Shown here one piece after another: positions 2,629 through 55,508 of a stretch of 64,000 nt of DNA (positions are counted from its first letter, which is position 1; each line of letters opens with the position of its first letter). Source of the DNA: a phage; sequence record PQ724393.1; one strand, written 5' to 3'. Position numbers and translations under genes: made by a program. A model generated the notes under the pieces. The model saw only the letters and a list, made by a program, of their open reading frames with translations, searched no databases and was not told where the DNA came from.

Positions 2629-2662
2629 TAAGAACCTAGAACCATTATACCATCCTTGGTAT
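2629..2662 (-). promoter_or_regulatory. promoter-like element with extended -10 (TGGTATAATGG on minus strand)
   Basis: plus-strand GAACCTAGAACCATTATACCAT; reverse complement gives TGnTATAAT; sits upstream of gene 1761..2606; a near-identical copy lies in the 18-19 intergenic region. Confidence 0.4.
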
Positions 2663-2669
2663 AAAGCGT

Positions 2670-3194
2670 TTATGCGAGAACCGTCTTTAAACGCTCTTCA
2701 AATTTCTGAAGCAGAGCTTGGCGTTCAGCTCGTTGTGATTTGTACTGCTCGATACGACCTGAAGTGAGGGCGTACTGTTCGTTTACTGATTCCCGCATGA
2801 ATTCAGGAATCTCTTTACAAGCTTTGATTTCGTCAAACTTATCAATAACAGCTTGTTGTTCAGCAATCAGATTATCGAAATAAGCGATATCAGATTTAAC
2901 GTTTGCCAGGTCGGATTCAGTAGGCATTAAACGTTTGTTACGTTCAGCTTGATAAGCTTGATTGGTTTCACGACTCCAGTGAAGAGTACGTTTTTTGTTA
3001 GTGTTTTTATAGAGCTCTACAATACCAACTGAATCGATGACTGCAATCCAGTTCCAACGGCTTTTGTAAATCTCTCCTCCAGATACGGTAATCTCATTAC
3101 CACAAGCAACATCGTTAAAGAACTTGCTTTGTTTTTCAGATTTGAAATTACCGTTGTTGAAATTAATCAGTGAAAAAATATCTTTAGCGTTCAT
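2670..3194 (-). CDS. hypothetical protein (174 aa)
   Basis: ORF with GGAGG RBS; preceded by the repeated promoter-hairpin element. Confidence 0.6.
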   Translation of the reverse strand: MNAKDIFSLINFNNGNFKSEKQSKFFNDVACGNEITVSGGEIYKSRWNWIAVIDSVGIVELYKNTNKKRTLHWSRETNQAYQAERNKRLMPTESDLANVKSDIAYFDNLIAEQQAVIDKFDEIKACKEIPEFMRESVNEQYALTSGRIEQYKSQRAERQALLQKFEERLKTVLA

Positions 3195-29360: not shown

Positions 29361-29505
29361 TCCTGAGTCACTAACCTCTAAGATAAAGTTAGTGGTGTTA
29401 GTTTGGTTAAATAAACCGTTCATAAGGTTCCTATATTGCTTAAGTCCCGGACAGTGTATAATGGTCCTAGGTCTGTTCCATTCAATAACTGGCTGGGATA
29501 ATAGA

Positions 29506-30333
29506 TTATGAATTCTTCCATACTTTCTGAGCTGAGTAACGCTTACCTTTAGACATAAATTGCTGAAGTGGAAGCATGACCACATTAGCCCAATCAGCAG
29601 GTTTTATCTCTACTAAAGGGCCCTTGATATTTCCAGGGATATAAGCCTTAATCATCACGTCTGCACCAGCGAATCCTTTTACCTTACTCCAATCGATTTT
29701 TAATTTAGTCGAGTTAGTAATGGTAGGCGTACTCGCGTATTGCTTCAGCAATTCTTCCAGAAATTGTTGACGTGCTTTAGGTGGAATATAGTGTAAGTTC
29801 AGTCCGTACATTAAATTATGCTTACCTAACCCAAGATAAATGATTAAAGGATATTTGTCCCAGTATGGTAGGGTATCCTTGTGCTTGGCGTCATAGATAT
29901 AAGCATAAAGCTTACCAGGAGATGGTTTAGATACCTGGTGTCCACGAATTCCTTTCTTTAATGTTTCTGTAAACCATTTAGCTGATTTATTGTTTACAGC
30001 GGCGCCTTCGTTAGCAATCTTATCACGAATACTCTTTCTAAAACTATTCACCAAAATTAATTGACGTTCGGCTTTGGTTAATTTATTGCCAGGTTTATTC
30101 TGAAGTTTTTCAACCTGTACAGCAGTTTTAATTCGACTCGAGTATCGAGACATCGCAGATGTAAAGCTAGAATACTTAATGCCTTTATCTTCAGCGAATT
30201 TCTTAGCCGAGACACCTTTAGCCTTAGCCTTGGCATATTCAACGCCTAAAGTTATCCATTGTTGTTCTGAACGAGTAGGCTTGGAACCTTTTGTGGTTTC
30301 AGTAGCCTCATTGATGTAGGAAAATATACTCAT
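29506..30333 (-). CDS. 2: DNA end protector protein (gene 2)
   Basis: position and size (about 275 aa from MSIFSY start) as T4 gp2. Confidence 0.75.
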
Positions 30334-30779
30334 CCTTTCCATCCTAATTTTTTCAGTGAATGTTCGGTAATCAATCTAAAGGTGATACCCATTTTATCTG
30401 CTGTAGCTTTAGCTGCTTTCCACTTATCAGTATTAACAGACCAAGTATAGTGTTCGTTGATATATCTCTTTTTAGCAGCCGTAGTCATTTTAACAGGCAC
30501 CGCAGGAGCATGGGTTTCTTTAAAAGGTTTGACTTCAAAAAAGAATTGTTGGCCTGTATCAAATTTAACCCAGAAGTCCATAAAATATCGTCTTTTCTTT
30601 CCTTCGGCATTGCAAAAGTATGGGATAACCACCTCTTCTGAATTCCACTGGACTACATTAGGATGGTTGTCAAGCCAACGCATAAACCATGCTTCCCAAG
30701 AGGAACGATATTGGATTTTCTTCCAATCACCTTTATATTTTTGTAAGTTTGTAGGTTTAAATTTCCCTGAGTAAGCCAT
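30330..30779 (-). CDS. 4: head completion protein (gene 4)
   Basis: MAYSGKF...QYRSSWE...[10 protein letters not shown] matches T4 gp4. Confidence 0.88.
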
Positions 30780-30790
30780 AGTTGCCTCCT

Positions 30791-30798
30791 TATAAATA
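30791..30798 (+). promoter_or_regulatory. late promoter TATAAATA for gene 53
   Basis: exact TATAAATA 28 nt upstream of ATG. Confidence 0.7.
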
Positions 30799-30805
30799 TT
30801 AATAT

Positions 30806-30813
30806 TATTTATA
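30806..30813 (-). promoter_or_regulatory. late promoter TATAAATA for gene 4 (divergent)
   Basis: TATTTATA on plus strand. Confidence 0.65.
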
Positions 30814-30825
30814 CTCGGAGGCCCT

Positions 30826-52848: not shown

Positions 52849-54831
52849 ATGTCTTTATTATCACCGGGCATTGAGCTCAAAGAAACGTCCGTACAGAGTA
52901 CTGTCGTTCGTAACGCAACGGGTCGTGCAGCGCTGGTTGGTAAATTCCAGTGGGGCCCTGCTTTCCAGGTAACTCAAATTACTAACGAAGTTGAACTGGT
53001 GGATTTGTTTGGAGGTCCTAACAACGAAGTGGCAGATTATTTTATGTCTGGTATGAACTTCCTCCAATATGGTAACGACCTTCGTACTGTTCGTGTTGTT
53101 AACCGTGAATTCGCTAAAAACGCATCTCCTGTTGCAGGCAATATCGAAACCACTATTACTACGGCTGGTTCTAACTATGCAGTAGGCGATAAAATTAATA
53201 TCAAGCACAACCAAACTGTTGTTGAATCTGAAGGTCGTGTGACTTCTGTAGATACGGATGGTAAAATTCTTTCCGTGTTTATCCCATCAGCAAAAATTAT
53301 TGCTTATGCACGTTCTTTAAACCAGTATCCTACCCTGGGCCCGGCTTGGACGGCTGAAGTTACTTCCGCTTCTTCTGGTGTTTCCGGTACTATTACCGTA
53401 GGTAAAATTGTTACGGATTCAGGTATTCTTTTAACTGAAGCAGAGAACAGTGAAGAAGCTATTACTTCCCTGGAATTCCAAGCATCTCTTAAGAAATTTG
53501 CTATGCCAGGCGTAGTTGCTCTTTATCCAGGCGAAATTGGTTCCACCTTAGAAGTAGAAATCGTTTCCAAAGCCGCTTATGATGTTGGTTCTTCTAAAAT
53601 GCTGGATATTTATCCGGGCGGTGGTTCTCGTGCTTCTATTGCCAAGGCGGTATTTAATTACGGGCCACAAACAGATGACCAATACGCGATTATTGTTCGT
53701 CGTGATGGCGCTATCGTAGAATCTGTCGTACTTTCTACCAAAGAAGGTGAAAAAGACGTTTACGGTAATAACATTTATCTTGACGACTATTTCGCTAAAG
53801 GTACTTCTAACTATATTTTTGCTACCTCTTTGAACTGGCCTAAAGGCTTCAGCGGTATCATTAATCTGATGGGTGGTGTATCTGCTAACGATAAGGTTAC
53901 TGCGAGTGATTTGATGCAGGGTTGGGATTTGTTCGCCGACCGTGAAGCACTCCATATTAACCTTTTGATTGCCGGGGCCGTTGCCGGTGAAGGTGATGAA
54001 GTTGCTTCTACCGTCCAGAAACACGTTGTTAGTATTGCTGATGAACGTCAGGATTGCTTAGCATTTATTTCTCCTCCTAAAGGACTGTTGGTTAACGTTC
54101 CATTGACTCGTGCAGTAGATAATCTTATCGACTGGCGTACCGGTGCAGGTACTTTCGATACCAACAACATGAACATTAGCACCACTTATGCTGCTATTGA
54201 CGGTAACTATAAATATCAGTATGACAAATATAATGACGTAAACCGTTGGGTGCCTCTGGCCGCTGATATGGCTGGTTTGTGTGCGCGTACAGATGATGTT
54301 TCTCAGCCTTGGATGTCTCCGGCCGGTTATAACCGTGGTCAGATTCTTAACGTTCTGAAATTGGCAATTGAACCTCGTCAAGCTCAACGCGACCGCATGT
54401 ACCAAGAAGCTATTAACCCGGTTGTTGGTTTTGCTGGTGGCGATGGTTTCGTATTGTTTGGTGATAAGACTGCAACTAAAGTTCCATCTCCGATGGACCA
54501 TATTAACGTTCGCCGTCTGTTCAATATGCTTAAGAAAAATATCGGTGATGCCTCTAAATATAAACTGTTTGAATTGAACGATAACTTCACTCGTTCAAGC
54601 TTCCGTATGGAAGTTTCTCAGTACTTAGATGGTATTAAGGCACTTGGTGGGATTTATGAAGGACGTGTGGTTTGTGATACTACAGTGAACACCCCTGCGG
54701 TTATAGACCGTAATGAGTTTATTGCTAATATCTACGTTAAACCTTCTCGTTCTATTAACTACATCACGTTGAACTTCGTTGCAACGAGCACTGGTGCTGA
54801 TTTTGATGAATTGATTGGACCTTTAGTATAA
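52849..54831 (+). CDS. 18: tail sheath protein gp18
   Basis: 660 aa, colinear with T4 gp18. Confidence 0.95.
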   Translation: MSLLSPGIELKETSVQSTVVRNATGRAALVGKFQWGPAFQVTQITNEVELVDLFGGPNNEVADYFMSGMNFLQYGNDLRTVRVVNREFAKNASPVAGNIETTITTAGSNYAVGDKINIKHNQTVVESEGRVTSVDTDGKILSVFIPSAKIIAYARSLNQYPTLGPAWTAEVTSASSGVSGTITVGKIVTDSGILLTEAENSEEAITSLEFQASLKKFAMPGVVALYPGEIGSTLEVEIVSKAAYDVGSSKMLDIYPGGGSRASIAKAVFNYGPQTDDQYAIIVRRDGAIVESVVLSTKEGEKDVYGNNIYLDDYFAKGTSNYIFATSLNWPKGFSGIINLMGGVSANDKVTASDLMQGWDLFADREALHINLLIAGAVAGEGDEVASTVQKHVVSIADERQDCLAFISPPKGLLVNVPLTRAVDNLIDWRTGAGTFDTNNMNISTTYAAIDGNYKYQYDKYNDVNRWVPLAADMAGLCARTDDVSQPWMSPAGYNRGQILNVLKLAIEPRQAQRDRMYQEAINPVVGFAGGDGFVLFGDKTATKVPSPMDHINVRRLFNMLKKNIGDASKYKLFELNDNFTRSSFRMEVSQYLDGIKALGGIYEGRVVCDTTVNTPAVIDRNEFIANIYVKPSRSINYITLNFVATSTGADFDELIGPLV

Positions 54832-54849
54832 TCTATTATCCCAGGCTGT

Positions 54850-54920
54850 AATATAAAGAACCTAAAACCATTATACCATGAGTTTGGTTACAGCGTACAT
54901 CACGTAGAATTGCGCCTGGG
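54850..54920. other. structured intergenic element: 8-bp inverted repeat (TCCCAGGC / GCCTGGGA) enclosing a TGGTATAATGG promoter-like motif on the minus strand
   Basis: read directly; shares a 24-bp block with the element at 2629-2662. Confidence 0.4.
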
Positions 54921-54956
54921 ATTGATTAACTATCAGGAATATGATTTATCAACTGT

Positions 54957-54964
54957 TATAAATA
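54957..54964 (+). promoter_or_regulatory. late promoter TATAAATA for gene 19
   Basis: exact match; followed by GTTCCTGG-TGTG-TCCAGGAAC hairpin. Confidence 0.65.
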
Positions 54965-55016
54965 AATTAATCAGAATGTTCCTGGTGTGTCCAGGAACTG
55001 GCTTATGAGGCATCCC

Positions 55017-55508
55017 ATGGAGTTGACAGATATCACTCGTGCATTTGAATCAGGTGACTTTGCACGCCCTAACCTTTTCGAAGTGGAAATTCCATTTCTC
55101 GGTAAAAACTTTAGCTTTAAATGTAAAGCAGCACCTATGCCGGCAGGCATTGTAGAAAAAGTACCGGTTGGCTACATGAACCGTAAAATTAACGTAGCTG
55201 GTGACCGTACGTTTGATGATTGGACAATTACCATTTATAACGATGATGCACATGACACCCGTCAAGCAATTGTCGATTGGCAGAATCTCTGTCATGGTAT
55301 GACCAATGAAATTACCGGTGCAGCACCTGCAGAATATAAGAAACAAGCAGTAGTTCGCCAGTTCCATCGTGACGGCAAGACTGTGACCAAAGAAGTTACA
55401 ATTTACGGCTTATGGCCTACTAACGTTGGTGAAGTCCAGATGGATTGGGACAGCAACAACGAGGTAGAAACTTTCGAATCTACGTTCGCTATCGATTGGT
55501 GGGAATGA
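55017..55508 (+). CDS. 19: tail tube protein gp19
   Basis: start at internal ATG (MELTDITRAFESGDFARPNLF) matching T4 gp19. Confidence 0.93.
   Translation: MELTDITRAFESGDFARPNLFEVEIPFLGKNFSFKCKAAPMPAGIVEKVPVGYMNRKINVAGDRTFDDWTITIYNDDAHDTRQAIVDWQNLCHGMTNEITGAAPAEYKKQAVVRQFHRDGKTVTKEVTIYGLWPTNVGEVQMDWDSNNEVETFESTFAIDWWE

Follow-up and report, generated by a model that had tools for sequence, protein, structure and literature searches.

A homolog of a T4 middle promoter, oriented antisense to the tail sheath gene, within a conserved stem-loop module between genes 18 and 19 of Dhakavirus phages

Middle promoters of phage T4 are defined by a MotA box, (a/t)(a/t)(a/t)TGCTTtA, lying 12 +/- 1 bp from an excellent -10 element (TAtaaT); TGn is found in about half of them, and deviations from the box, stated as single ones, are tolerated while deviations from the -10 are not (PMC2988021). 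One of the identified middle promoters, PnrdC.7, occupies the nrdC.8/nrdC.7 intergenic region of T4 and has its experimentally mapped start at position 53325 (Hinton 2010, PMC2988021, Table 1). There is also precedent for transcription against phage genes: 22 antisense start sites are reported for T4 from differential RNA sequencing (bioRxiv 10.1101/2024.04.04.588121), and antisense transcripts of T4 gene 32 are credited to Belin 1987 where that work is cited in PMC3014915. A further class of described elements, PeSL and PmSL, consists of repeated units of promoter, stem-loop and Shine-Dalgarno (SD)/start that occur near insertions and deletions, also as degraded copies (Arbiol 2010, PMC2839356; Comeau 2014, PMC4122927). 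Here we analyze a 64,000-nt stretch of phage DNA from record PQ724393.1 (the window, whose positions are used throughout) and, within it, the 185-bp spacer at 54832-55016 between gene 18 (tail sheath) and gene 19 (tail tube), which carries a minus-strand promoter-like element that we call copy B. Around the spacer, identity to JS98-like phages (genus Dhakavirus; Straboviridae, Tevenvirinae) amounts to 95-98.5%, and their records name the two flanking genes as tail sheath and tail tube. Judged from its sequence, copy B is a homolog of a T4 middle promoter; elements of this kind are known, and what is unusual here is the place and the direction.

We lean toward a model in which the module that contains copy B does two jobs, serving as a 3' stem-loop for gene 18 and as an active middle-mode or extended -10 promoter for an antisense RNA. 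On the sense strand, a nested stem-loop would take the place that a simple post-gene-18 hairpin has in T4 and other T4-like genera, and it would probably act as a 3'-end barrier or stabilizer of the gene 18 late mRNA. During the prereplicative period, host sigma-70 RNA polymerase would initiate at copy B through contacts with TGn and the -10, with no need of a -35 and aided by MotA/AsiA, and would transcribe leftward. The product would be an untranslated RNA antisense to the 3' end of gene 18, probably a short one because Rho terminates untranslated RNA, and firing would end upon conversion of the polymerase to its late form. The predicted RNA would resemble known T4 antisense transcription in being made by host polymerase from the strand opposite a phage gene. 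No paper dealing with 'anti-late RNA' or with an antisense transcript from 18-19 was found.

Copy B is centered on the block GAACCTAAAACCATTATACCAT at 54858-79, whose reverse complement begins ATGGTATAAT. The initial annotation had described a near-perfect extended -10 on the minus strand; the match, TGGTATAAT, is perfect, both the -10 and TGn agreeing fully with the middle-promoter requirement. A MotA-box-like element lies upstream (gtaCGCTGTA with its flank) and is invariant in 20 genomes. No -35-like hexamer (GTTTAC- or TTGACA-like) is present at 16-18 bp from the -10, which rules out the early class, and copy B is therefore assigned to the middle/extended -10 class on this ground and on that of its homology to the PnrdC.7 ortholog described below. 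A MotA homolog is encoded in the genus: with T4 MotA as the tblastn query, proteins of about 50% identity were found in EcWhh-1 (E = 3e-51) and PSD2002 (E = 9e-51), the motA locus lying outside the window. The orientation antisense to gene 18 stands as originally proposed: any transcript from the motif would have gene 18 as its target, and no minus-strand gene is found downstream; antisense open reading frames (ORFs) within gene 18 begin more than 270 nt downstream of the predicted start.

The block of copy B occurs a second time, with one mismatch, at 2632-53. An almost identical 24-nt block had been recorded earlier at 2629-2662 in front of a minus-strand early gene; the block is there (23 of 24 positions identical to 54856-79), its coordinates are 2630-2653, and the gene downstream is nrdC.6, served by a promoter of the middle rather than the early class. 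Two block matches were never found in 100 shuffles of the window. Homology between this locus (paralog A) and copy B extends over about 55 nt, with a local alignment score of 50 as against 17.6 +/- 2.3 (maximum 26) for shuffled sequence, and the alignment runs from the CGCT(T/G)TA element through TGGTATAAT and +1 into the transcribed leader. Paralog A is nearly identical to the nrdC.8/nrdC.7 intergenic sequence of T4 and of hundreds of Tequatroviruses, in one record of which the sequence is annotated as a terminator overlapping a 'T4 middle promoter GCTT(N13-15)TATAAT'. The T4 PnrdC.7 start, 53325, is the A of TATAATggttctA, seven bases after TATAAT, and it is by homology to this start that we infer the one in copy B. 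In copy A, which drives nrdC.6, a hairpin (TTATACCA/TGGTATAA) overlaps the -10. The sequence upstream of rnlB in RB69 likewise shares TGGTATAAT...CTAGGTTCT with copy B. Among IMG/VR sequences, six genomes carried the block, at two loci only in each. Copy B resembles the T4 middle promoters PnrdC.7 and PrnlB in its perfect -10 and TGn, its GCT box 13 bp upstream and the context of +1, and differs from them in that its box reads CGCTGTA rather than TGCTTtA, its start is predicted, no gene lies downstream, it opposes a late structural gene and it is nested in a hairpin.

A window scan for GCT-N15-17-TA(T/A/C)AAT revealed a third copy, paralog C, in the spacer between genes 2 (29506-30342) and 3, late genes on the minus strand. 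The scan match covers 29434-29476 and reads TGCTTAA-N13-TATAAT-GGTCCTAGGTC, and the copy as a whole reaches the gene 2 stop, ending in ...CTGGGATAATAGATTATG, the reverse complement of TAATCTATTATCCCAG, which is the sequence that follows the gene 18 stop. As TAATCTATTATCCCAG stands at both gene stops, copies B and C share the entire stretch from a late-gene stop to the -10, and both point back into their late gene, copy C being antisense into gene 2. Among genuine late-gene spacers in the window, the module is present only in 18-19 and 2-3, the others being plain hairpin-plus-TATAAATA units. Copy C is conserved across Dhakavirus and, over 72 nt, is 91-96% identical to sequences in Kosakonia phage 305 (Kanagawavirus), Enterobacter phages Q7622 and ZX14 and Edwardsiella phage PEi26, in which the flanking coding DNA is too diverged for blastn alignment. 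T4 itself carries a plus-strand homolog in its 2-3 spacer, with the consensus arrangement aaTGCTTTA-N13-TGGTATAAT and a start predicted at about 76,000; the compilation of 58 T4 middle promoters does not include it (PMC2988021). Between T4 and Dhakavirus copy C the promoter is kept and the hairpin is built from different sequence. The MotA boxes of paralogs A and C and of the T4 version of C are all better than that of copy B.

An analogous minus-strand arrangement recurs in 18-19 spacers of other genera, again with stems of different sequence. In Gaprivervirus VR20 and VR25, a minus-strand ATGCTTTTA-N-TGTATAATGGTTCTACGG lies within a different inverted repeat (CCGTAGAACC/GGTTCTACGG), and VR26 of the same genus has kept the MotA box, the -10 and the +1 region with no flanking inverted repeat. 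In Klebsiella Marfavirus, TGCTAAA-N13-TGGTATAAT sits at the apex of a different perfect hairpin within a different outer stem; the apex, CAUUAUACCAUG, is the same as in the Dhakavirus inner hairpin and the stem differs. A fourth lineage has a weaker version of the motif. Among 102 unique short 18-19 spacers, GCT-N15-17-TATAAT was found on the minus strand in 13 and on the plus strand in none (shuffles, 0.19 on average), the 13 spacers representing four lineages (Dhaka-, Gapriver- and Marfavirus plus one other) rather than independent events. Our main argument is that promoter elements persist while the stems around them change or vanish, which points to selection on the promoter itself.

Within Dhakavirus, we compared 18-20 genomes. 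Only 3 of the 66 columns at 54832-54897 are variable, as against 70 of 165 (42%) fourfold-degenerate sites of genes 18 and 19 (Fisher p = 1.8e-9), a contrast that makes the module as constrained as first and second codon positions; the adjoining 54898-54937 varies at a near-neutral rate (11 of 40 columns). A metagenome scan returned no further Dhakavirus spacers. Conservation in related T-even phages, on which the initial annotation had made its proposal depend, is thus found at two levels: the block is near-invariant in Dhakavirus and the motif recurs in other genera, while the whole 185-bp spacer is confined to Dhakavirus, with no blastn match outside it. A small protein or coding extension of gene 18, whose frame runs on past its TAA for 58 open codons to a TGA at 55006-08, was considered and rejected, since substitutions are spread over every codon position and a 1-nt insertion is present in VR5 and ESCO10. 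The CLB_P2 record has a 32-aa ORF annotated in this frame past the TAA.

The sense strand of the same module has properties of its own. An inverted repeat around the block had been noted as 8 bp long; it is present and extends to 9 bp, and it encloses 67 nt that include both the inner hairpin and the opposite-strand promoter. By itself a 9-bp repeat is within chance for 185 bp, and it is conservation, paralogy and the score of the fold that lead us to count it as significant. For the sense strand of 54826-54930, folding gives a nested structure at -27.8 kcal/mol (z = -3.8). A pseudoknot formed by the interleaved 7-nt inverted repeats GTATAAT/ATTATAC and GCTGTAA/TTACAGC was considered and rejected, as such repeats occur at chance frequency. 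At permissive thresholds, Rfam gave two sub-threshold snoRNA matches (E > 1) and no known RNA family. The position after the gene 18 stop is one at which other genera also have hairpins: the T4 18-19 spacer holds a hairpin-plus-TATAAATA unit twice, and Mosugukvirus, Roskildevirus and others have a pair of hairpins, one immediately behind gene 18 and the other ahead of the late promoter. The Dhakavirus structure is like these in its site after the stop, its GC-rich stem and the TATAAATA that follows for the next gene, and unlike them in the length of sequence enclosed by the stem, theirs having a loop of 4-10 nt.

These properties open the possibility, which we consider doubtful, that the conserved object is the sense-strand stem-loop alone (a terminator, 3' stabilizer or processing signal) and that the promoter likeness is silent inherited baggage. 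It would account for the fold score and for the presence of a GC-rich hairpin at exactly the same post-gene-18 position in T4 and other genera, and a hairpin is likewise found beside TATAAATA in other late spacers of the window. Dhakavirus and Marfavirus have nested architectures that are alike in form and different in stem sequence, with the Marfavirus fold being more stable on the sense strand. Furthermore, the inner hairpin of copy B arises from the lone mismatch that separates block B from block A (T in one and C in the other, minus strand) in combination with an altered upstream arm. Set against this account are (i) VR26, which has retained promoter elements with no hairpin arms; (ii) the T4 2-3 spacer, where the hairpin comes from different sequence and the promoter is kept in perfect consensus form; (iii) the stem of copy B, which is GC-rich and is not followed by the U-tract of an intrinsic terminator (its tail is AUUGAUUAAC), a terminator scan of the sense strand having found none here; and (iv) the TATAAT, the TGn and the GCT box at 12-13 bp, present in four lineages and only on the minus strand, all of which a stem-loop alone leaves unexplained.

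Several observations nevertheless weigh against an active promoter in copy B. The first concern the promoter itself: the MotA box departs from the consensus twice (C in place of T at its first position and a G within the CTT core) and stands at the outer limit of the permitted spacing (13 bp); no minus-strand ORF or gene lies near or downstream of the predicted start, and no function is evident for a transcript; the T4 18-19 spacer has no such minus-strand motif; and the list of T4 middle promoters has none in the 18-19 or 2-3 spacers (PMC2988021). The remainder concern the pattern of variation. The only multi-allelic column, 54881 (A/T/G), coincides with the bulge predicted in the inner hairpin, and all three observed stem substitutions retain G-U pairs, and do so on the sense strand only: C>T at 54846 in IME341, A>G at 54922 in six genomes, and a C>U in one Gaprivervirus-type spacer (metagenome locus L105). 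Substitutions of this kind mean that sense-strand RNA structure could explain much of the conservation. The constraint is also wider than a promoter needs, in that +2 to +32 and the spacer between box and -10 are included, and synonymous diversity is low in the last ~45 nt of gene 18 as well (in endonuclease-free genomes), so part of the low diversity of the module may be a regional effect.

The existence of three homologous copies in the window (2630-2671, 29434-29510 and 54832-54898) raises a different issue, namely whether the module is a solo cassette of the PeSL/PmSL type, or the footprint of a homing endonuclease, brought in by recombination (for example with an endonuclease gene from the 2-3 spacer) and now a recombination substrate or scar rather than a regulator. 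Copies B and C share, besides the sequence from stop codon to -10, a leader with an SD-like GGGA, and the alignment of all three copies runs on through the leader as far as the start-codon position, where A and C have ATG and B has ATA. In copy C the ATG is followed by only 14 codons; the leader of copy B (GGGA...ATA) has lost its start codon and contains no ORF. The module is like PeSLs and PmSLs in being a repeated short intergenic cassette with a sigma-70/Mot-type promoter, a stem-loop and an SD/start-like 3' end, located near insertion/deletion hot spots. The high identity of copy C across genera would fit horizontal spread.

The 18-19 spacer is indeed a hot spot for free-standing HNH endonuclease ORFs. 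These belong to one family (phrog_5104, whose ORFs had no Pfam match above threshold), lie on the late strand at two insertion sites, and occur in relatives and several other genera, flanking module B on either side. Insertions of the first type lie between the gene 18 stop and the module and have their own early-type promoter (GTTTAC-N15-TGGTATAAT); those of the second type lie just upstream of gene 19, behind a late promoter, and begin within 54938-54977. In genomes with the first type, the final ~90 nt of gene 18 show a divergent synonymous haplotype that has the look of a cleavage-resistant allele or of a co-conversion tract. Between gene 2 and copy C, ABTNLS3, E33 and Kosakonia phage 305 carry an HNH-type ORF of 216 aa that is unrelated to these and has been annotated as a homing endonuclease. 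Given that this ORF ends at TAA-TCTATTATCCC, endonuclease genes sit, at both loci, where the antisense promoter would fire into them.

We nonetheless regard a mere cassette or footprint as quite unlikely. A scar should decay, and the level of constraint on the module is the opposite of this; moreover, genomes with an endonuclease gene show no change in the module, as against differences at about 25% of sites on the gene 18 side. Described PeSLs have their stem-loop upstream of the promoter and are found mostly in hyperplastic regions. In copy B, by contrast, the promoter is inside the stem-loop rather than downstream of it and faces the opposite way to the neighboring genes, and the element lies within the conserved late structural cluster, with no downstream gene and no start codon.

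A promoter that has no gene to express could also belong to an R-loop replication origin of the T4 oriF/oriG type, in which a middle promoter is combined with a downstream A+T-rich unwinding element and the transcript stays hybridized in the unwound region to prime the leading strand. The 60 bp downstream of copy B have a GC fraction of 0.32-0.35, compared with about 0.40 in the surroundings. Such A+T enrichment is ordinary for this genome, neither divergent transcription nor a change of skew is seen at 18-19, and no T4 origin has been mapped there; we hold an origin to be highly improbable. We return to the two-job model as the one that we favor, in which the stem-loop would act on the gene 18 mRNA and copy B would fire in the opposite direction.

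With regard to the remainder of the spacer (Table 1), gene 19 encodes 163 aa, the same length as T4 gp19, and the late promoter and perfect 8-bp hairpin that had been assigned to its leader were both recovered. The late promoter is embedded in a near-invariant stretch, 54938-54977 (1 of 40 columns variable in the genus comparison), which includes 19 nt upstream of TATAAATA and exceeds the known needs of T4 late promoters. Across the genus, the stem of the leader hairpin is kept and its loop varies; in Salmonella phage ABTNLS3, the loop (54986-54990) is exactly inverted, from TGTGT to ACACA, with the stem intact, which is a signature of palindrome-mediated inversion or template switching. We also noted that CAGGAATAT (54934-54942) can pair with ATGTTCCTG (54976-54984) and would then compete with the leader hairpin. 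Since only gene 18 read-through transcripts hold the upstream arm, the gene 19 leader may fold differently in these than in transcripts that start at the late promoter. At the other end of the spacer, a plus-strand sigma-70-like sequence, TTGATG-N18-TATAAT (54803-54832), overlaps the end of gene 18 and its stop codon; it faces the minus-strand -10 at a distance of 37 nt, and its start would fall at the foot of the outer stem. Marfavirus likewise has a TATAAT directly after the gene 18 stop. Elsewhere in the window, the 46-bp spacer 30780-30825 between the divergent late genes 4 (minus strand) and 53 (plus strand) is a near-palindrome with TATAAATA on both strands, and these appear to be back-to-back late promoters.

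Table 1. Locations of the module, its paralogs and neighboring features (window positions unless a T4 or locus position is given)
Feature	Position	Strand	Remarks
Paralog A, nrdC.8/nrdC.6 spacer, CGCTTTA-N12-TGGTATAAT	2630..2671	-	predicted +1 at 2637; ortholog of T4 PnrdC.7
Paralog C, gene 2-gene 3 spacer	29434..29510	+	TGCTTAA 29437-43, N13, TATAAT 29457-62; predicted +1 at 29469
Gene 18 (tail sheath) ORF	52849..54831	+	98% identity to annotated Dhakavirus tail sheath genes
Palindromic module (outer stem around inner hairpin, minus-strand promoter within)	54832..54922		begins directly after gene 18 stop
Outer stem 5' arm, ATCCCAGGC	54838..54846	+	perfect 9-bp inverted repeat with 54914-54922
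Inner hairpin, AACCuaAAACCAU-UAUACC-AUGaGUUUGGUU	54859..54889		-10 at apex; from folding
Predicted antisense start, A	54863	-	7 nt after -10; by homology to T4 PnrdC.7 start
Extended -10, TGGTATAAT	54870..54878	-	TGn 54878-76, TATAAT 54875-70; invariant in 20 Dhakavirus genomes
MotA-box-like CGCTGTA	54889..54895	-	13 bp upstream of -10; 5/7 match to TGCTTtA
Outer stem 3' arm, GCCTGGGAT	54914..54922	+	perfect 9-bp inverted repeat with 54838-54846
Gene 19 late promoter, TATAAATA	54957..54964	+	same motif before gene 19 in T4 and other genera
Gene 19 leader hairpin, GTTCCTGG-tgtgt-CCAGGAAC	54978..54998	+	arms 54978-85 / 54991-98, 8 bp
Gene 19 SD (GAGG, 55007-10) and start (ATG, 55017-19)	55007..55019	+
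T4 homolog of copy C	AF158101 about 75,955-76,060 (locus L196 1355-1462)	+
HNH ORFs in 18-19 spacer	L001 997-1617 (PSD9); L022 (QL01); L002 (UP19); L190
HNH ORFs in 18-19 spacer	L020 814-1497 (vB_EcoM_005); L029; L036; L044; L048; L055
216-aa HNH ORF	L194 1602-2252 (ABTNLS3); L195 1569-2219 (Kosakonia phage 305)		ends at same TAA-TCTATTATCCC junction

A broader scenario, which is speculative and in our estimation rather unlikely, is that a small set of middle-mode promoters, sited directly after late-gene stops, has been conserved in T4-like phages including T4 itself (the stop of gene 2 in several genera and that of gene 18 in Dhaka-, Gapriver- and Marfavirus), and that by firing back into the late genes these promoters would be dedicated sources of the long-known and unexplained 'anti-late' RNA. 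Such RNA could hold down premature or read-through expression of late genes or of inserted homing endonucleases, or could seed R-loops. If the promoter is silent, what we describe is an elaborated post-gene-18 hairpin derived from a duplicated promoter cassette, which would be ordinary. In either case the 18-19 and 2-3 spacers are hot spots for homing endonuclease insertion beside the module. If the promoter is active, one short sequence would be under two overlapping constraints, one strand being held to an RNA hairpin and the opposite strand to a promoter, and antisense RNA against a major structural gene of a T4-type phage would have a source that is defined, conserved and open to mutation. 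Should the sister element in T4 be active as well, 'anti-late RNA' would become testable in the model phage by point mutation.

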